Positions 5,938-25,187 are shown, counted from the first letter of the stretch. The stretch is 64,000 nt of DNA from Candidatus Dojkabacteria bacterium (GCA_030583685.1 CP129470.1:810754-874753); one strand, 5' to 3'. Program-made: numbers and translations. The notes: generated from the letters alone by a model not told the origin.

Positions 5938-6024
5938 GGAGGGGTGGCTGAGTGGTTGAAGGCACTGCTCTCGAAAAGCAGCATACGGTTTTCCGTATCG
6001 AGGGTTCGAATCCCTCCCCCTCCG
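5938..6024 (+). tRNA. tRNA-Ser (anticodon CGA), class II with a long variable arm; CCA not encoded
   Basis: Hand fold gives acceptor GGAGGGG/CCCCTCC, D-arm GCTGAGTGGTTGAAGGC, anticodon stem-loop CTGCT-CTCGAAA-AGCAG, variable hairpin ATACGG-TTTT-CCGTAT, and T-arm GAGGG-TTCGAAT-CCCTC. Closely resembles E. coli tRNA-Ser. Confidence 0.9.
6007..6024. repeat. 18-nt direct repeat, copy 1 (tRNA-Ser 3' end CGAATCCCTCCCCCTCCG)
   Basis: An identical 18-mer recurs at 6275-6292. Confidence 0.8.
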
Positions 6025-6265
6025 TTTTATATTTTTCTCTCCTTCCCTGTTCAAAACAACCAGTTGTTTCTCACGACGGTCAGGATCCGAAAAATATAAA
6101 AAACGGCAAAGCAAGAAGGAGAGGAAAGTATAAAAATGAAATGGTGAGGGATGAAGAAACCCAAGGAGAACAGACAGTTCTGTTCGACGCAGGGCGGGGC
6201 TGCGCGCAAGGTCCGATAGAACTTACGATGTAGTATTTCAGAGCTGAAGCATGAAGCCTGAAATA

Positions 6266-6295
6266 CAAGGGTAGCCGAATCCCTCCCCCTCCGCC
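6266..6295 (+). pseudogene. tRNA 3' fragment (degenerate T-arm plus acceptor 3' strand plus CCA)
   Basis: The T-loop is expanded to 9 nt and there is no D-arm or anticodon arm, so it is not a functional tRNA. Confidence 0.4.
6275..6292. repeat. 18-nt direct repeat, copy 2 (att-like duplicate of the tRNA-Ser 3' end, followed by CCA)
   Basis: CGAATCCCTCCCCCTCCG followed by CCA. It is preceded by a degenerate T-arm-like AAGGG-TAGCCGAAT-CCCT. Confidence 0.8.
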
Positions 6296-6341
6296 AATTT
6301 TCACTTTTTGTGAAATCGTAAGAAACAGCCTCGGCTTTCTT

Positions 6342-6380
6342 CCCGCCCGCAGGAGGGGTCTGGGGAGGAATGCGGGCGGG
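6342..6380 (+). other. GC-rich perfect 10-bp inverted repeat (CCCGCCCGCA...TGCGGGCGGG) with a 19-nt loop, followed by ATTTTG
   Basis: Seen directly in the sequence. Possible terminator or protein-binding palindrome in the non-coding tRNA-to-HTH spacer. Confidence 0.4.
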
Positions 6381-6512
6381 ATTTTGAACCTTTCCTTTTT
6401 CGCTTCCGAATTTCGTATTTTGCAAAGTAAAATGCGCCACCAATGAAGATGTTGCCCTTGACCCACCCAACCCATTCGCGGGCAACGCTAAGGAACTCCC
6501 TAAAATTTTTCT

Positions 6513-6575
6513 TTGACTAAATGCTAAAAATTTCATATACTAACTATTGATAAGTGATATTTTTAATACTATACA
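6513..6575 (+). promoter_or_regulatory. tandem sigma70-like promoters upstream of the HTH gene
   Basis: TTGACT(6513-6518)-17 nt-TATACT(6536-6541), and TTGATA(6547-6552)-17 nt-TATACA(6570-6575). Confidence 0.45.
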
Positions 6576-6600
6576 ACTATCATAGTAAAACTATACGAAT

Positions 6601-6810
6601 ATGTCAAAGGAAAAATCCACAATCGCAGACAATATAAAGAAATACCGAAACAAGCTCGGCATTTCGCAGGATCAGCTTTCAAAAAAGGCGGATTTAGCTT
6701 TTCATACGATTGCAAAAATTGAAGCTGGCTCTACTCCTAACCCAACCATTGAAACAGTTAAAAAAATAGCGGACGCTCTCGGTGTTTCGCTTGATGATTT
6801 AATGAAATAA
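6601..6810 (+). CDS. XRE-family HTH protein (controller/C-protein-like, 69 aa)
   Basis: LGISQDQLSKKADLAFHTIAKIEAGS..PTIETVKKIADALGVSLDDL. It ends 4 nt before the nuclease gene. Confidence 0.75.
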   Translation: MSKEKSTIADNIKKYRNKLGISQDQLSKKADLAFHTIAKIEAGSTPNPTIETVKKIADALGVSLDDLMK

Positions 6811-6814
6811 AAAT

Positions 6815-8581
6815 ATGGCACAAGTATTCAAAACAACAGATTATACAATCGGAAAACTAATGGACGATATCGAAATCGGCGATATTGCTTTGCCAGATAT
6901 TCAGCGTCCGTTCGTATGGTACAAAAAAATATCAAAAGTCCGTGATTTGTTTGATTCGATTTATCGCGGTTATCCAATCGGATATTTGCTTTTCTGGGAA
7001 AATGCCAATCGCAGTGATTATAAAAATATTGGCTTTGATGAGAAGAAAAGGAAAATTCCGAGATTTTTGATAATTGACGGACAGCAAAGATTGACGGCTC
7101 TTTTTGCCGTTATGAAAAATCAGGAAGTTTTGACCCCTGATTATGAAAGCAAAGCTATCAAAATTGCTTTTCGCCCAATAGACGCACTTTTCAAAGTCGG
7201 CGACGCGGCGACCGATCGCGACCCCGAATATATTCCCGACCTTTCAGCTCTTTGGTCTGGCGAGGGTGATTTTGCTATCATTAGCAATTTTATTTCAGCG
7301 TTAAAAGAAAAACGAGAAATCACGAAAGAAGAAGAAAAGACAATTTCCTCAAACATTCAATCACTTATAAACATCAATAAATATCCTCTCACGGCTCTTG
7401 AAATTGCTCCTAATTTAGAAGAAGAAATCGTCTCGGATATTTTTGTTCGCATAAACAGTCAAGGGGTGAGTTTGACGCAAGCTGATTTCATTTTGACTTT
7501 ACTTTCCGTCTATTGGGAAGAGGGCAGGAAAGAAATTGAGCAGTTTTGTATTGATTCAAGAAAAATTCCAGAAAAAGAAACTCGTTTTTCGTCTTTCAAT
7601 TATTTGATAAAGCCCGATCCGGACGATATGCTTCGCGTTTTAGTTGGTCTGACATTCCACCGAGCAAAAATGAAAGATGTCTACTCCATTATTCGCGGAC
7701 GCGATATGGAAACAGGAGAATTTTCAGAAGAATTGCGAACGCATCAATTTGATAAATTGAAATTAAATTTGCCGACTATCCTTGATAATACGAATTGGCA
7801 AAGTTTTCTGAAAATTCTTATTGGTGGCGGATATAAAGATGAAGAACTTATATCGTCAAAAAATGCCGTTTTGTATAGCTATATTCTTTATCTTATTGGA
7901 AAACAAAATTTCAATACGCAAAATCACGAATTGCAAAGAATTATCGGGCGCTGGTTCGTGATGTCTTCTCTGACAGGTAGATATTCTTCTTCACCAGAAA
8001 CCGCCTTTGAAAAGGATCTAAACAGAATAAAAGAGTTTAGCCACGACGGATTTATCAGCGGACTTGAAAAGATAATTGGTGAGAATTTAACCAATGATTT
8101 TTGGGATATTACGCTTGTCGGGCAAATGGAAACATCATCAGCAAGAAGCCCAGAGGCAAATGCTTTTTATGCCGCGCTCAACAAGCTAGGCTCGCCAGTT
8201 TTATTTTCTCGCAAACTTGTAGGCGATCTTTATGATCCGTCTTTAAAGATTAAAAAGAAGCGTTTGGAAAAACATCACATATTCCCACGAAATTATCTCA
8301 TTTCAAAATATGGATTTGATAAGAACAAAGACAAGGCAAAAATAAACCAGATTGCCAATCTGACATTTTTGGAATTTGAAGATAATATCGAAATCAGCGA
8401 CGACAAACCAAGCGAATATTTTGCAATGGTGCAAAAAAGGTTCGGCGAGAGCGAAATTAAAGAAATGCTGGCAGAGCACGCTATTCCAGAAAATTTTTAT
8501 CAGCTTGAATATGATACATTCCTCCAAGAAAGAAGAAAACTCATGGCGGGAGTTATAAGAAAGGCATTTAATAAAATATAA
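6815..8581 (+). CDS. DUF262 (ParB-like NTPase) plus DUF1524 (His-Me finger nuclease) protein, GmrSD/BrxU/SspE family
   Basis: N-terminal DIQRPFVW..LIIDGQQRLTALF (DGQQR motif). C-terminal EKHHIFPRNYL..NQIANLTFLEFEDN (DUF1524-like HNH motif). Confidence 0.7.
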   Translation: MAQVFKTTDYTIGKLMDDIEIGDIALPDIQRPFVWYKKISKVRDLFDSIYRGYPIGYLLFWENANRSDYKNIGFDEKKRKIPRFLIIDGQQRLTALFAVMKNQEVLTPDYESKAIKIAFRPIDALFKVGDAATDRDPEYIPDLSALWSGEGDFAIISNFISALKEKREITKEEEKTISSNIQSLININKYPLTALEIAPNLEEEIVSDIFVRINSQGVSLTQADFILTLLSVYWEEGRKEIEQFCIDSRKIPEKETRFSSFNYLIKPDPDDMLRVLVGLTFHRAKMKDVYSIIRGRDMETGEFSEELRTHQFDKLKLNLPTILDNTNWQSFLKILIGGGYKDEELISSKNAVLYSYILYLIGKQNFNTQNHELQRIIGRWFVMSSLTGRYSSSPETAFEKDLNRIKEFSHDGFISGLEKIIGENLTNDFWDITLVGQMETSSARSPEANAFYAALNKLGSPVLFSRKLVGDLYDPSLKIKKKRLEKHHIFPRNYLISKYGFDKNKDKAKINQIANLTFLEFEDNIEISDDKPSEYFAMVQKRFGESEIKEMLAEHAIPENFYQLEYDTFLQERRKLMAGVIRKAFNKI

Positions 8582-8778
8582 GTATGACAAGAACTACTAA
8601 ACCTAAAAAAGAAACAAAAATCCGAAGAAAATTATTTTGATGATCTCCTCAGAGAAGAAGGATACGCGTCAGAGATTTCAATGCTTCTTGATTTAGGTAC
8701 ACCAGATAATAAACGACTATCAATCTTAGATGACCTTCTTGCACATCTGCAACGAAAAATTAAACATATTACGTAGTT

Positions 8779-9246
8779 TCATATAATCTCTACCTTCTTC
8801 GCATTCGCCGATATCAATCGAAACATATCTCGCTCTTTGTAATGCTTGGCTATGTTTGTCTCACTTGGGATATGGTCGGTGAGAAAAAATCCCCAAAAGG
8901 TTGTATGTAACAGTGCGAGCAGTCTACTGAATGAGCAAGTTGCTCGAAATTTTTTATCCTGTGTCCACCGTTTGAGAATTCGAATAACTGCCTGAAGAGG
9001 GGTAATCCGGATGTAAATCACCTTGTCTGCCCGCCGAATATAGTCTGGCAAGTAATAGGCACCTTCGATAATCCAATTTCCGTCCAATGGTATCGCTCGT
9101 GAAATTTCCTCATGGGTGAGCATTCTCTTTCCCTGGTTGTTCCATAAATCATCAGTATGAAATAGGGGTACGGCATGTTCTTGAGCAAGTTTCTTTGCAT
9201 AGGTCGTTTTCCCTGCACCAGGACTTCCAGAAATAAAGATTCTCAT
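8779..9246 (-). CDS. P-loop NMP-kinase-like protein (FlaR/adenylate-kinase-like)
   Basis: MRIFISGSPGAGKTTYAKKLA..FHTDDLW. The start is taken at the internal ATG that matches the Walker A position. Confidence 0.55.
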   Translation of the reverse strand: MRIFISGSPGAGKTTYAKKLAQEHAVPLFHTDDLWNNQGKRMLTHEEISRAIPLDGNWIIEGAYYLPDYIRRADKVIYIRITPLQAVIRILKRWTQDKKFRATCSFSRLLALLHTTFWGFFLTDHIPSETNIAKHYKERDMFRLISANAKKVEII

Positions 9247-10677: not shown

Positions 10678-11121
10678 ATGTCCATTTTTGAATCTAAACA
10701 CTTCCTCCTTGAATCGCTCGAAAAGCCCGAAGTTGATAGACTTGATGGGGGACATGTTAAAATTTCTCCGAAGATTTCTGTAGAAGACATTTCGTTTTAT
10801 ACCCCCGAACAAATGATTGATCTTGCGCGTTTGACTCAGGTCGCCGGAATCGCCATGAAAGAAGCGATGTCGGCAATTGGCGTCGAAATAGGTCGTATCA
10901 ATTATCAAGATAACGGTAACTGGACACCTGTTCAACATGTTCACCTGTATTGCAGAGCAAAACAGGCAAAATGGCAAAAATACGGTGATCCCATAATTCC
11001 AGGAAACAAGCCAGAATATCAACCACTAACAAGAGAAGATTGTGAACAAATCCATCAAATTGTTGAACGGTTGTTTACAGAAGAACGATTTTCAAACAAA
11101 GCATGGGGATTACAAGGTTAA
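10678..11121 (+). CDS. HIT-like (histidine-triad superfamily) protein, triad partly degenerate
   Basis: GGHVKISPK (HIT N-terminal-like) and QHVHLY instead of HxHxHxx. Confidence 0.4.
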   Translation: MSIFESKHFLLESLEKPEVDRLDGGHVKISPKISVEDISFYTPEQMIDLARLTQVAGIAMKEAMSAIGVEIGRINYQDNGNWTPVQHVHLYCRAKQAKWQKYGDPIIPGNKPEYQPLTREDCEQIHQIVERLFTEERFSNKAWGLQG

Positions 11122-13779
11122 CCGCCTCAGTCGAATTGTTTTATACACTTCTCCCGTTAACAGCACAATCCCGGATACAAGAATAACTCCGGAAAGCTCG
11201 AAAAAAGTGAGTGGGACAAAGTTGAAAATTGGCTGAAACGAAGGTGTATACATGGCGCCGAGGAAAAGAAACGACGAAACCGCGACCGCAACGTTTATTG
11301 CAGGATTAGAGAAGTACCCAAGTTTCCAAATGGGAGTATCCAGAGAACGAAGGTTGAAGACGTTAAACAACTGAGTGAAAACCATCACCGCAAAAACCAT
11401 GGTACGTGCCTTGTCGAGTGAGCCACTCAGATACGGCAAGAAATATGCCATGCCCAGAGTCATCATAAGAAGCGCTAACGTTATAATGAAAACGAAGTCT
11501 TTTCTTGTCACAATTGACTCGGTTTTATTTCGTGGCTTTTCCGTCAGAATTGAGCGGTGAGATTTTTCTGTCGCGAGGGCGACATCTGAAAGTCCGTCGG
11601 TTACGAGGTTAAGCCAGAGAATTTGCAAGGGTAGCAACGGCAATGGGGTTGCAAAGAGAAACGATACAAAGATCAAAAAGTACTCAGCAAGATTAGTGGT
11701 AATCAGATACAAACTTGTTTGCCTCATATTTTTGAAAACGGTTCGCCCTTCTTGAACCGCATCGATGATTGTTGCGAAGCTGTCTTCAAGGAGAATGAGG
11801 TCACTCGATTCTTTCGCGACATCGGTTCCCATAAGACCCATTGAGATACCAATATCGGCCTGCTTGATGACGGGAGCATCGTTAACTCCGTCGCCGGTCA
11901 TTGCAATGACTTGCCCGTCTTGTTGCAAAACCTGAGCAATTCGTTGTTTTGTTTCAGGAGTTACGCGTGCAAAAACATTGATCGTTCTCACTTTTTGTGC
12001 AAATTCTTCGTCAGAAAGCTCGTCGATATCTGTTTGCGACAGTGCCTGGATATGTAATTGAGAATTCGGCGTTGTTGGATCAATAATTCCAGATTTTCGT
12101 GCAATTTCAAAGGCGGTTGCAACATGATCCCCAGTTGCCATAATAACACGGATACCCGCAGTGTGAGCTGCTGTAATGGCCGCTGGCACCTCTTCACGGA
12201 GGGGGTCGGCAATTTGAAGCACCGCTCCTAATTCGAGCGTTTTTGGTACAGTTTTAGGCATTTCTGATTGGGAGATTTGAGTATAAGCAACTGCTTGCAT
12301 GCGGTACCCTTTTGTTGCTGCTCGCTCAACCTCGGAAACAAGGTCTCCTGCATTTTTGCAGTTCGCAAGAACGGCTTCTGCACCGCCAAGGAGTACAAAG
12401 AGAAACTTTCCTGTAGCTTTTTCTTTAAAGAGTGCACTTTTCGTTTTAGAATCCTGATTATATGCAGTGTCAGTCAGTAGCTCATAGTGTTCTGCGGCAA
12501 GTGTTCGGGTATATCCAGCTTTTCGTGCAACAACATAACGGGCAACTTCTGTTGGATAACCAGTAACTGTTGGACCGGATTCCGTTTCGGTGATCTCTCC
12601 GATACTCGTGAGTGCAAAAAGAGAAAACAGACGTTTTAATCCACTCATCTCAGTTGTTGAAATGCTTTTTTTGTTTCGCAGAAACTTCCCTGTGAGCTCC
12701 CATCTTTTTCCCGTTATGTCGATTGGATTTCTGTCTGCAAAAAGCAATTTTTCGACCTTCATCACATTTTCGGTTAAGGTGCCTGTTTTATCGGTGATAA
12801 TGGTTGTGACTGTTGAAAGTGTTTCAATGGCTGGGAGGTTTCGCAGAAGTGCCTTCTTGCGAGACATGCGCACAGAGGCGATAGAGAGCAAAACCGTCAA
12901 AACCGACGGCAACCCTTCAGGAATACCAGAAATGATTGTTGCAAACACAAAGGAGAGTATTTCGCTGAAGCTTTCGCCTCGAAAGTAAAGCAATATACCA
13001 ATTAATCCAGAAAGGACTATTGCAACAGTAATCATTTGTTTAAGCAAAAATTCCGTTCTCTGATGGAAGAGTGATTTTTGCTCGATCGTCGTTTGCAGTT
13101 GTTTCGAAATTTTGCCGATTTCTGTTTTTTCTCCGATTGCAACAACAACACCTTCACCTTTTCCAGAAACAACATGCGTACTCATGAAAACCATATTGAT
13201 CCTATCCCCAAGTGCCGTTTTTATGGGAAGTTCTTTTGCCTGTTTCAAGATTGGAAGTGATTCTCCGGTTAAACTCGCTTCCTCCGTGGACAACTCGCGA
13301 GAATCGAGTAATCGAATGTCTGCGGGCACAGTCTGTCCGTCTTCAAGAAGCACGATATCACCAGGTACAAGCTCGTATTGCTGAATGAGTTGAATTTTCC
13401 CGTTACGTCGAACTCGGCAGGTTAATGTTACCAGTTGTTTTAGACTTTGTACGCGTTTCTCAGCTCGGAATTCATGAAATACCCCAACGGACATATTGAT
13501 GACGATAAGGATGCCAATGACAACTGCGTCAATCAGGTGGTCGGAAAGAAGCGAGAGAATCGTTGCCAAGAGAAGAATGTAGGTAAGTGCATTATGAAAC
13601 TGATGCCAAAGAATTTGCCAGATGGTTTTTGCGGAAGTTTCAGGAAGTTTATTTTCTCCGTATAAAATTCTTCGTCGAATTACTTCTTCGGAAGAAAGCC
13701 CGTGAGTATTCGTAACTGACAGTTTCTTGAGGAGTTGAGTGAGTGACACTGAATGCGAGGCCATAAAGTATGGTAGCAT
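11110..13779 (-). CDS. cation-transporting P-type ATPase
   Basis: DKTGTLT phosphorylation motif, TGES-like actuator, MTGDGVNDAP hinge, N-terminal cation-ATPase domain, and about 10 TM segments. Confidence 0.9.
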   Translation of the reverse strand: MLPYFMASHSVSLTQLLKKLSVTNTHGLSSEEVIRRRILYGENKLPETSAKTIWQILWHQFHNALTYILLLATILSLLSDHLIDAVVIGILIVINMSVGVFHEFRAEKRVQSLKQLVTLTCRVRRNGKIQLIQQYELVPGDIVLLEDGQTVPADIRLLDSRELSTEEASLTGESLPILKQAKELPIKTALGDRINMVFMSTHVVSGKGEGVVVAIGEKTEIGKISKQLQTTIEQKSLFHQRTEFLLKQMITVAIVLSGLIGILLYFRGESFSEILSFVFATIISGIPEGLPSVLTVLLSIASVRMSRKKALLRNLPAIETLSTVTTIITDKTGTLTENVMKVEKLLFADRNPIDITGKRWELTGKFLRNKKSISTTEMSGLKRLFSLFALTSIGEITETESGPTVTGYPTEVARYVVARKAGYTRTLAAEHYELLTDTAYNQDSKTKSALFKEKATGKFLFVLLGGAEAVLANCKNAGDLVSEVERAATKGYRMQAVAYTQISQSEMPKTVPKTLELGAVLQIADPLREEVPAAITAAHTAGIRVIMATGDHVATAFEIARKSGIIDPTTPNSQLHIQALSQTDIDELSDEEFAQKVRTINVFARVTPETKQRIAQVLQQDGQVIAMTGDGVNDAPVIKQADIGISMGLMGTDVAKESSDLILLEDSFATIIDAVQEGRTVFKNMRQTSLYLITTNLAEYFLIFVSFLFATPLPLLPLQILWLNLVTDGLSDVALATEKSHRSILTEKPRNKTESIVTRKDFVFIITLALLMMTLGMAYFLPYLSGSLDKARTMVFAVMVFTQLFNVFNLRSLDTPIWKLGYFSNPAINVAVAVSSFLFLGAMYTPSFQPIFNFVPLTFFELSGVILVSGIVLLTGEVYKTIRLRRLTL

Positions 13780-25113: not shown

Positions 25114-25187
25114 GTCCCAGTAGCTCAACTGGATAGAGCAGTCCCGTCCTAAGGGAAAGGTTGTGAGTTCGACTCTCGCCTGGGACA
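25114..25187 (+). tRNA. tRNA-Arg (anticodon CCT)
   Basis: Hand fold gives acceptor GTCCCAG/CTGGGAC, D-arm GCTC-AACTGGATA-GAGC, anticodon loop GTCCTAA (one G-A mismatch at the top of the anticodon stem), and T-arm GTGAG-TTCGACT-CTCGC. Confidence 0.75.

Follow-up and report, generated by a model that had tools for sequence, protein, structure and literature searches.

How did a small regulator gene and a nuclease gene come to lie beside tRNA-Ser(CGA) in the genome of Candidatus Dojkabacteria bacterium (GCA_030583685.1), and what do they do there? The locus belongs to a stretch of 64,000 nucleotides (CP129470.1:810754-874753), here called the window, whose positions are counted from its first letter. 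An earlier note on this DNA had pictured an accessory defence islet marked by the att duplication of a tRNA-targeting integrase, with the small regulator as the probable controller of the nuclease. The comparison with other loci, cited by their L numbers, leads to another mechanism. Positions 6276-8614 are quite probably the left part of a decayed modular integrative element of the serine-recombinase type at tRNA-Ser, which has retained a two-gene operon.

The tRNA-Ser(CGA) gene (5938-6024, plus strand) is intact, with 57.9 bits against the Rfam tRNA model and a matching ARAGORN call, lacks an encoded CCA and has the same sequence in the relatives L011, L151 and L152. Its last 18 nt, CGAATCCCTCCCCCTCCG (6007-6024), recur exactly on the plus strand at 6276-6293; the perfect repeat had been noticed before, with coordinates (6275-6292) that are one position too low. 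These are the only two copies in the window, and zero matches were obtained in 100/100 shuffles. The second copy is preceded by GGGTAGC, a distorted T-arm, and followed by CCA (6294-6296), just as the earlier note had described, where the real tRNA gene continues with TTTTATA. A decayed full tRNA was considered and rejected: there is no tRNA match even at E<=10, and alignment of the preceding 80 nt with the tRNA body gives nothing above the level of shuffles. The copy is taken as the tRNA half of an attL relic, the junction of which is kept at 6276-6335. The idea of an att duplication stands in that an integration relic is present at the tRNA; it falls in that the two copies do not bracket the island, both lying to the left of the defence genes.

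The CCA and the 39 nt behind it (6294-6335, plus strand) are borne by the element and begin its arm A: window 6289-6335 corresponds to A positions 2-48 and matches L001 7661-7707 at 100%. Where the element is intact, arm A coincides with the 3' end of the recombinase gene, read in antisense. At the 8-nt GCCTCGGC (6328-6335), common to both arms, it is fused to 87 nt from the inner end of arm B (B positions 101-187; 6328-6414, plus strand), which are 100% identical to L001 9514-9600. The inner arm B also matches, inverted, the far cassette end in L001-L004 (100% identical), and window 6328-6416 is found there in inverted orientation. Since A positions up to 48 are joined to B positions 101-187, the recombinase unit that stands between A and B in L001, and is gone from the window, has been deleted. 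The arm B remnant forms an 11-bp stem (6341-6351/6371-6381) followed by TTTT and is terminator-like when read rightwards. The stretch from the second 18-mer to the regulator gene measures 307 bp, and not the 570 bp once stated (576 bp separate the tRNA from that gene). Nor is it a mere spacer: it carries conserved arms, hairpins and promoters.

The regulator and the nuclease follow. Homology between the window and the cassettes with this nuclease, a member of the GmrSD family, covers 6328-8614 only, at 98% nucleotide identity. Its last part is a remnant of hsdM, the first 31 nt of a Type I methyltransferase gene (8584-8614, plus strand), in which the 100% identity to the hsdM start of L001-L009 ends at 8614 and whose frame meets a stop after 18 codons. 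The Type I restriction-modification (RM) system is reduced to this remnant, with hsdS and hsdR absent. Between the deletion point and host DNA lies an orphan 3' gene fragment (8615-8773, plus strand; 159 bp, about 52 codons; ...EENYFDDLLREEGY...KIKHIT and a stop), which has no homologue among the fetched loci. At 8774 the homology of host DNA to L152-type relatives picks up again. A tblastn search over the window gave no recombinase, HsdM, HsdS or HsdR, and neither B', nor a further arm copy, nor attR is present anywhere in it; the search for an integrase and for more copies of the 18-mer, which the earlier note had proposed, was likewise empty within the window. By comparison with the complete cassettes, the right end of the island is deleted. 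The mobility of this locus is only historical, because the window lacks the recombinase, B' and attR, and the copy is a non-autonomous remnant, since intact relatives encode a recombinase and the window encodes none.

The intact copies show what has been lost. Their order is a tRNA ending in CCG, the CCA with arm A, a large serine recombinase on the opposite strand, A', arm B, hairpins, promoter and operator, the regulator, the cargo, B' and the flank, and it is found in L001, L031, L071, L072, L075, L091, L125, L135, L144, L149 and others. In L001 the tRNA is tRNA-Ser(GCT), behind which stand CCA and 39 nt identical to window 6297-6335. The recombinase (499 aa, 7669-9165, minus strand) has CcrB/XisF-type large serine recombinase matches, and behind it the first 133 bp return inverted (A/A'), before arm B, the regulator, the cargo and B'. 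The B/B' inverted repeat is 187 bp long in L001, and its outer end meets different DNA in L001, L002, L003 and L027. This outer end reads ...GTTCGAAC-N-...CACCG(C) and stops at the same base, after which the flanks are unrelated; a 23-mer from it occurs in at least 120 metagenome contigs. On the other side, arm A directly follows a complete tRNA ending in CCG, again at the same base, in at least 11 other contigs. The start sequence of arm A is found behind tRNA-Ser(GCT/GGA/CGA), tRNA-Trp and tRNA-Asp; the adjoining genes are tRNA-Ser with three anticodons, one tRNA-Trp and one tRNA-Asp, all ending CCG-CCA. These tRNAs are host genes, because their acceptor stems fit their own 5' ends.

As aligned, the A junction lies at or just after the discriminator base. 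In the compared contigs the recombinase-bearing elements stand directly behind the discriminator base, on its 3' side; the tRNA is as a rule tRNA-Ser, in a few cases tRNA-Trp or tRNA-Asp. By the same alignments the tRNA-Ser(CGA) of the window is an attB-type target of this family of A/B elements. From GTTCGAA to the CCG end there are 14 nt in the tRNAs and 19 nt in the B' end. For serine integrases it has been established that a motif common to both sites lies 5 bp more outward in attP than in attB (Rutherford et al. 2013, PMC3783163). We infer that the T-loop motif is read by the zinc-ribbon domain of the recombinase. The recombinase itself would insert the element; the tRNA 3' end, in which GTTCGAA is followed by 14 nt that close with CCG, would serve as the attB arm, and the B' outer end, in which GTTCGAAC is followed by 19 nt closing likewise, as the attP arm. 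The proposed attP would span the junction of B' with A, where ...GTTCGAACATCAATCAAAAAACACCG meets CCAATTTTCACTTTTTGTGAAATCG.

The same tRNA end has received other DNA. In L151, from a 97%-related genome, a 599-bp element X (10682-11280) lies exactly between the last G of the tRNA and the trailer; it encodes a 115-aa membrane-like open reading frame (ORF) and is followed by the same 251 bp that separate the two 18-mers of the window. Its right end, AAAAAAGTTCGAGC-N-CTCCCCG, has the pseudo-tRNA architecture and the 19-nt spacing of the B' end. Because element X is inserted exactly there, the tRNA end is a repeatedly used target.

The recombinase ORF (L001 7578-9165; also L072, L091, L144, L149 and others) has no stop of its own and crosses attL into the antisense tRNA. 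The C-terminal tail of the recombinase therefore varies with the insertion site: SENW is followed by RRGRDSNPR and a stop at attL, vs RCFLIDVRTFFEQNPQ and a stop in L140. By the same reasoning the tail would differ again in the excised form, as in L140. The cargo within the B/B' frame is mostly defensive and includes Type I, II, III and IIG-like RM genes, GmrSD-like proteins and ATPases, for example EcoRV with a Dam-like methylase, Eco57I-like methylases and a GmrSD_N-HNH protein. AAA_15/21 and ABC ATPases, a DEAD helicase, a PPDK_N protein and a beta-helix protein are also found. The frame itself is 92-100% identical across these differing cargos.

The window copy would derive from an L001-type cassette of the order HTH-GmrSD-HsdM-HsdS-HsdR-196 aa (HTH, the helix-turn-helix regulator), to which it has 98% nucleotide identity. 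Three losses would have followed. The recombinase unit would have been removed by a deletion between the GCCTCGGC repeats of arms A and B; a second deletion would have taken the part from hsdM codon 11 through B'; and the direct contact with the tRNA body would have been lost, leaving 18 nt at the junction. Derivatives without recombinase, with several different junctions, are also known from L053, L062, L080/57/126, L102, L111 and L118. Other rearrangements were seen in the family. In L140 (2615-4487) the recombinase unit stands in the opposite orientation between the tRNA and arm B, and contig L148 reads over its whole length as an almost perfect palindrome that has a recombinase at each end; such arrangements would come from inversion through the 133-bp and 187-bp inverted repeats, or else from errors of assembly. 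In L016 (9824-10000), next to a tRNA-Ser gene, arm A runs straight into the final 30 nt or so of the HTH gene, which leaves a GmrSD gene without regulator.

The DNA between the tRNA and the relic has a separate origin in part. The tRNA trailer (6025-6190, plus strand) is common to relatives without the island and aligns with the L152-type locus to about 6190. In it, TTTTATATTTTTC (6025-6037) pairs with GAAAAATATAAAA (6089-6101), and the arms covary, with TTTTATATTTTTC/GAAAAATATAAAA in the window vs TTTTGTAATTTC/GAAATTACAAAA in L152-type relatives; the hairpin may be a conserved terminator or a processing structure of the tRNA transcript. The next 85 nt (6191-6275), directly left of the tRNA-end copy, are specific to the window lineage. 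This segment includes the hairpin GTATTTCAG..CTGAAATAC, has no L152 counterpart, and shows no similarity to the tRNA body and no match among the fetched loci. The 251 bp between the two 18-mers are also present in L151 and L011, with one single-nucleotide difference. They were considered as an inserted mini-element, a reading that was abandoned because the first ~165 nt match the trailer of island-free relatives. One possibility for the 251-bp offset is that the tRNA-proximal part was replaced by DNA of the unoccupied allele, with an illegitimate right-hand join. The window contains a second tRNA gene, tRNA-Arg(CCT), at 25114-25187.

The relatives L152-L159 (97%-related, from several samples) have the order PDT, tRNA-Ser(CGA), trailer, three small ORFs and an AAA kinase. 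They carry no HTH or nuclease gene and are homologous to the window through the tRNA and about 165 nt of trailer, and then from 8774. The block 6191-8773 is accessory because L152-L159 lack it, and core synteny in all relatives, the outcome that would have spoken against an islet, is not observed. The accessory and horizontally acquired character that the earlier note had proposed is borne out, too, by the identical protein in unrelated flanks and by a GC content of 37.9% for the island vs 41.7 +/- 1.4% in windows of equal size. In the place of the island, L152 (10463-11451, minus strand) has small ORFs of 146, 85 and 54 aa, with no Pfam hits on record. Since L152-type loci carry small ORFs there, the interval from the trailer to the AAA kinase is a variable slot in the species group. 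On the other hand, contigs from another sample (L011, L030, L010) match the window at 100% to the left and to the right of the block, so that the truncated form is established in a population.

The exact 588-aa nuclease is encoded on 14 public contigs, always in the order HTH-GmrSD-HsdM-HsdS-HsdR-196 aa and with differing flanks, and the 120 best homologues show 88-98% identity. When one genome per species was scanned, the nuclease turned up at 83-100% identity in metagenome-assembled genomes (MAGs) of many labels, namely Nomurabacteria, Moraniibacteria, Shapirobacteria, Peribacteria, Omnitrophota, TA06, Lentisphaerota and Altiarchaeales. The archaeal copy (L013 9273-9373) stands close to one end of a scaffold of 1.39 Mb, some 150 bp away from a stretch of N, a position that calls for caution about the archaeal assignment. 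Known phages, plasmids and IMG/VR viral contigs gave no relevant match, only 95 nt at 75% on a Calothrix plasmid.

The first gene of the retained operon encodes the 69-aa XRE/HTH_3 regulator (6601-6810, plus strand; Pfam HTH_3 E 3e-17), in agreement with the first description. The protein is 100% identical in L001-L005. Its match to the PADLOC control-protein model (E 3e-11) is equalled by capH and generic HTH models. Among solved structures SinR, the 434 repressor and HigA come nearest, HigA and HipB being antitoxins in this nearest group, and no solved control (C) protein is found among the PDB matches at E<=0.01. An HTH gene adjoins arm B as the first gene in dozens of cassettes with unrelated cargo. 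Judging from these arrangements, the HTH is a generic first gene of the frame, whatever the cargo, and not a specific partner of GmrSD.

The tandem promoters reported upstream are confirmed as sigma-70-like matches. The promoter-like P1 of the HTH-GmrSD operon, TTGACT-17-TATACT (6513-6541, plus strand), scores 10/12 in a consensus scan and is invariant in 13 diverged copies; the second match (6554-6583, plus strand) scores 9/12. A candidate operator, TACTAT-N9-ATAGTA (6567-6587), contains the inner palindrome ACTATCATAGT (6576-6586), its core being invariant in the 13 copies; across copies the palindrome reads ACTAT(A/C)ATAGT, in a surrounding region that is AT-rich. An extra half-site, ACTATAC, lies at 6590-6596. 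Other HTH subtypes have inverted repeats of their own, equally far from the ATG (-34 to -44). A strong leftward promoter-like site, TTGACA-17-TATGAT (6579-6607, minus strand; 11/12), has its -10 element on the operator palindrome and faces the recombinase gene in intact elements. The HTH is plausibly an autoregulator: it would bind the palindrome between promoter and start codon and limit its own transcription and that of the nuclease, and in intact elements it might also restrain the leftward promoter facing the recombinase. The controller role once assigned to it is therefore plausible for its own operon, and does not extend to a dedicated partnership with the nuclease.

The nuclease ORF (6815-8581) begins 4 nt downstream on the same strand and encodes an intact BrxU-like protein of the GmrSD family with a DUF262 NTPase and a DUF1524 His-Me/HNH domain; both the length of 588 aa and the two domains had been predicted, and Pfam, PADLOC and PDB matches and the motifs agree. 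GmrSD_N (PF03235) is matched at residues 12-229 (E 1.6e-31) and GmrSD_C (PF07510) at residues 466-535, with 23.3 bits vs a cut-off of 23.0. The motifs are RDLFDS (43-48), DGQQR (88-92), KHHIFP (about 485-491) and N511/N515/N524. DGQQR is invariant in 12 homologues down to 73% identity, and conservation extends to HHIFP, N511, N515 and N524. Of the PADLOC models HEC-05 scores best (E 2.6e-40); the authors of that model regard it as the same as BrxU (10.1101/2024.01.29.577857). The only significant PDB match is BrxU 7P9K (E 1e-10, residues 11-244), and residues 509-584 align weakly and non-significantly with the BrxU C-terminus. The family comprises 463 cluster representatives at E<=1e-30. The ratio of non-synonymous to synonymous substitution rates (dN/dS) is 0.02-0.04 vs 17 copies from L001-L027, with dS up to saturation, and all copies, including those labelled as different phyla, have exactly 588 aa and zero indels. 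For a defence gene, such strong purifying selection is unusual. As far as the sequence tells, the HTH-nuclease pair is the remaining functional two-gene operon, and the protein is a BrxU-like member of the DUF262+DUF1524 GmrSD family. By this membership it would be a type IV, modification-dependent enzyme like BrxU and GmrSD, in which NTP binding and hydrolysis by DUF262 may be coupled to the cutting of modified-cytosine DNA, i.e., phage DNA that evades ordinary restriction, by the HNH-type DUF1524 domain. By analogy, it probably cuts modified phage DNA.

Among characterised systems, BrxU from pEFER (a type IV enzyme embedded in BREX; 7P9K/7P9M) is the nearest. Both are single chains of about 590 aa in which a DUF262 domain, bearing the nucleotide-binding motif R(x)LFDS and DGQQR, is joined through a long helical linker to a DUF1524 HNH domain at the C-terminus, and both families are embedded with a methylation-based system. 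On the other hand, only the N-terminal about 235 residues align significantly, at low identity; the HNH motif starts with His in the window protein (HHIFP) and with Asp in BrxU (DHIYP); and the partner was a Type I RM system, now deleted, where that of BrxU is BREX. The BrxU gene is preceded by the WYL-type BrxR, the window nuclease gene by the XRE HTH. GmrSD-like proteins embedded in Type I RM systems were noted in the preprint of Payne et al. (10.1101/2024.01.29.577857). With GmrSD itself (E. coli CT596/Eco94GmrSD, type IV, active against glucosyl-hydroxymethylcytosine DNA) the protein shares Pfam GmrSD_N and GmrSD_C and DGQQR. It differs in having RLFDS, a motif that classical GmrSD lacks (10.1101/2024.01.29.577857, PMC8565348), and no direct GmrSD match is found in PADLOC or PDB. 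The likeness to SspE, a phosphorothioate-sensing nicking nuclease, proposed in the earlier note, goes no further than the shared DUF262 and DUF1524: the PADLOC match (E 1.3e-4) contains no significant stretch, and no solved SspE chain is found among the PDB sequence matches. No sspABCD genes are nearby: in the cassette the nuclease gene adjoins the HTH gene and hsdM, and in the window its surroundings are housekeeping genes.

The HTH resembles the C proteins of RM systems (C.PvuII, C.AhdI, C.Esp1396I) in its small size, in its position co-oriented with and directly upstream of the nuclease, in the conserved palindrome, a candidate operator, of its own promoter region and in its match to the PADLOC control-protein model. 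The differences are that the candidate operator lies downstream of P1 and not at -35, with a geometry unlike classical C-boxes, and that the HTH belongs to the frame of the element and precedes any cargo. The element family, in turn, compares with large-serine-recombinase elements (the A118, Bxb1 and phiC31 integrases, SCCmec Ccr, XisF): its recombinase has CcrB/XisF-type domains, the ends carry no long direct repeat, and the motif of the element arm is 5 bp further from the crossover than that of the target arm. A classical tRNA-targeting integrase, as first supposed, is thereby replaced by a large serine recombinase, which needs no such repeat. The family departs from these elements in its target, a tRNA 3' end just past the discriminator base; in the 133-bp and 187-bp inverted repeats that frame recombinase and swappable cargo; and in the stopless recombinase ORF reading into the antisense tRNA, none of which features is left in the window. 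Tycheposons and tRNA-targeted cargo islands are likewise small cargo elements that pile up at tRNA genes and leave partial tRNA copies, but 910/937 of the tycheposon-type elements use tyrosine recombinases, and frame, hosts and cargo differ from those of the A/B family.

Between the terminator-like arm B hairpin and the HTH promoter, the backbone contains two further hairpins, in which G.U pairs favour the plus strand. Hairpin 2 (6414-6436, plus strand; RNAalifold consensus) is CGTATTTTGC-AAA-GTAAAATGCG; one pair covaries, from U-A to C-G in 4/11 sequences, and one U.G pair suits the plus strand only. Hairpin 3 (6451-6486, plus strand) has a 7-bp stem, GTTGCCC/GGGCAAC, and a conserved C-rich loop of 22 nt. 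Five distinct stems occur, all complementary, with compensatory changes in 6/7 pairs, and the pairing is kept in 100% of cells vs 30-57% with partners slid, a covariation test that is partly circular because instances were gathered at <=1 stem mismatch. The decayed copy L015 has no hairpin 3 stem, and Rfam holds no family for the backbone hairpins. Two ideas were dropped. The hairpin 3 loop does not suit a minus-strand G-quadruplex, as the fourth G-tract varies among variants, and the complementarity of a kissing loop between arm B and hairpin 3 is unconvincing by eye. When L001 18200-18240 is set against window 6406-6443, the inverted repeat beyond 187 bp persists in structure and not in sequence: at the right end of L001, where hairpin 2 would have its mirror image, another hairpin stands, GCCAGTT-GAAA-AACTGGC, and both are edged by CGAATTTCG and CGCCACC.

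Could the two 18-mers be the core repeats attL and attR of an island that a tyrosine integrase inserted, with the HTH and the nuclease inside? The perfect 18-nt repeat of the tRNA end, its T-arm-like context and the CCA are the usual leftovers of such an event, and element X in L151 marks the site as a hotspot. Yet the defence genes lie outside the repeat pair, about 165 of the 251 bp between the copies are common to island-free relatives, and the window contains no tyrosine integrase, the tblastn search giving no recombinase whatever; the CCA with arm A is, moreover, the invariant left end of the serine-recombinase element in at least 11 contigs. This explanation is very improbable. A separate question is whether the fusion of arms A and B at GCCTCGGC records the precise excision of the recombinase unit with GCCTCGGC as core, the window being the 'empty' form of a two-tier element. 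In L001, GCCTCGGC (or GGAATTGCC..CTCGGC) is a direct repeat around the recombinase unit; L111 has a similar junction with different cargo; CTCGGC also stands at the internal deletion of B' in L027 and at the junction of arm A with the HTH gene in L016; and GCC-TC-GGC resembles the core of a serine recombinase, with dyad and asymmetric centre. Precise excision is unlikely all the same: at least five junctions (L053, L062, L080/57/126, L102, L118) use other short repeats, e.g., GTTCGAAC, or palindrome centres, the junction sequences of the window and L111 differ, and the boundaries that are invariant in position with diverse flanks are those at the tRNA and B' ends, not CTCGGC. Because the copies without recombinase show several junctions, decay by short-repeat deletion fits better than one precise excision.

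The HTH and the nuclease might also be mainly a selfish, addiction-like stabilisation module, in which the regulator restrains a self-toxic nuclease. A small HTH, a 4-nt gap and a nuclease make a controller/toxin-like layout, the dN/dS of 0.02-0.04 without indels is unusual for an arms-race gene, the pair outlasts the loss of all else, and the solved structures nearest to the HTH include the antitoxins HigA and HipB. There is, however, no sign that the nuclease attacks host DNA, the same HTH slot precedes unrelated cargos, including plain methyltransferase/restriction pairs, and BrxU and HEC-05, the nearest relatives of known function, give protection from phages whose DNA is modified (10.1101/2024.01.29.577857, PMC8565348); we consider this role improbable. 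Finally, the GmrSD gene, with or without the HTH, may have arrived alone by homologous or illegitimate recombination, the attL relic nearby being incidental. Solo GmrSD genes without arms do occur, beside tRNA-Ser(GGA) in L026 and beside other genes in L017-L021, and natural transformation is probably common in this bacterial group. But arm A, arm B, hairpins, promoter, HTH, GmrSD and the start of hsdM are contiguous and collinear with L001 at 98-100%. By this collinearity the block came as one piece of an L001-type cassette, and a lone arrival has very little chance of being right.

Several observations weigh against the decayed serine-recombinase element that we prefer. The attL relic lies, awkwardly, 251 bp downstream of an intact tRNA and trailer; the recombinase, the B' arm and attR are all missing from the window. 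The att assignment is a putative one, drawn from comparative junctions. In L111, whose junction is near that of the window, arm A stands beside non-tRNA DNA. The solo GmrSD gene of L026 (9870-10000) lies 45 bp after tRNA-Ser(GGA) with no A/B arms, so the gene also moves or persists without the frame. As for range, the taxonomic labels of MAGs may include binning errors, and the Altiarchaeales copy L013 adjoins a scaffold gap. As for the protein, the C-terminal nuclease domain clears the Pfam cut-off by 0.3 bits only, and an AlphaFold2 model from a shallow alignment of 32 near-identical homologues reached a pLDDT of 41 and a pTM of 0.27, too low for use in judging the intertwined homodimer fold of 7P9K.

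A broader and more tentative proposal goes beyond the window. The HTH-led B/B' cassettes and the recombinase may together form an undescribed, integron-like platform that inserts after the discriminator base of tRNA-Ser and swaps defence cargo, of which the window would be a fossil, and the hairpins may be cis-acting RNA or single-stranded DNA structures for recombination or control. No description of the element family was found in the literature searched, the coverage of which is incomplete, so an earlier description is possible. Because its target is the universally conserved tRNA end, such a platform could move between very distant lineages; its range could span candidate-phyla bacteria and, provided that the MAG labels are right, an archaeon and further phyla as well.

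The HTH-nuclease pair in itself is an ordinary accessory defence pair of known kinds. The value of the locus is in the family to which it leads, an abundant one (at least 120 contigs) that holds diverse defence cargo in one frame beside tRNA-Ser genes. The family is found mostly in bacteria of the candidate phyla radiation, of whose defence systems and mobile elements little is known. If the recombinase and the short tRNA-end target act as proposed here, they would explain how near-identical defence operons come to be present in unrelated genomes, and would add a serine integrase with a naturally universal target.

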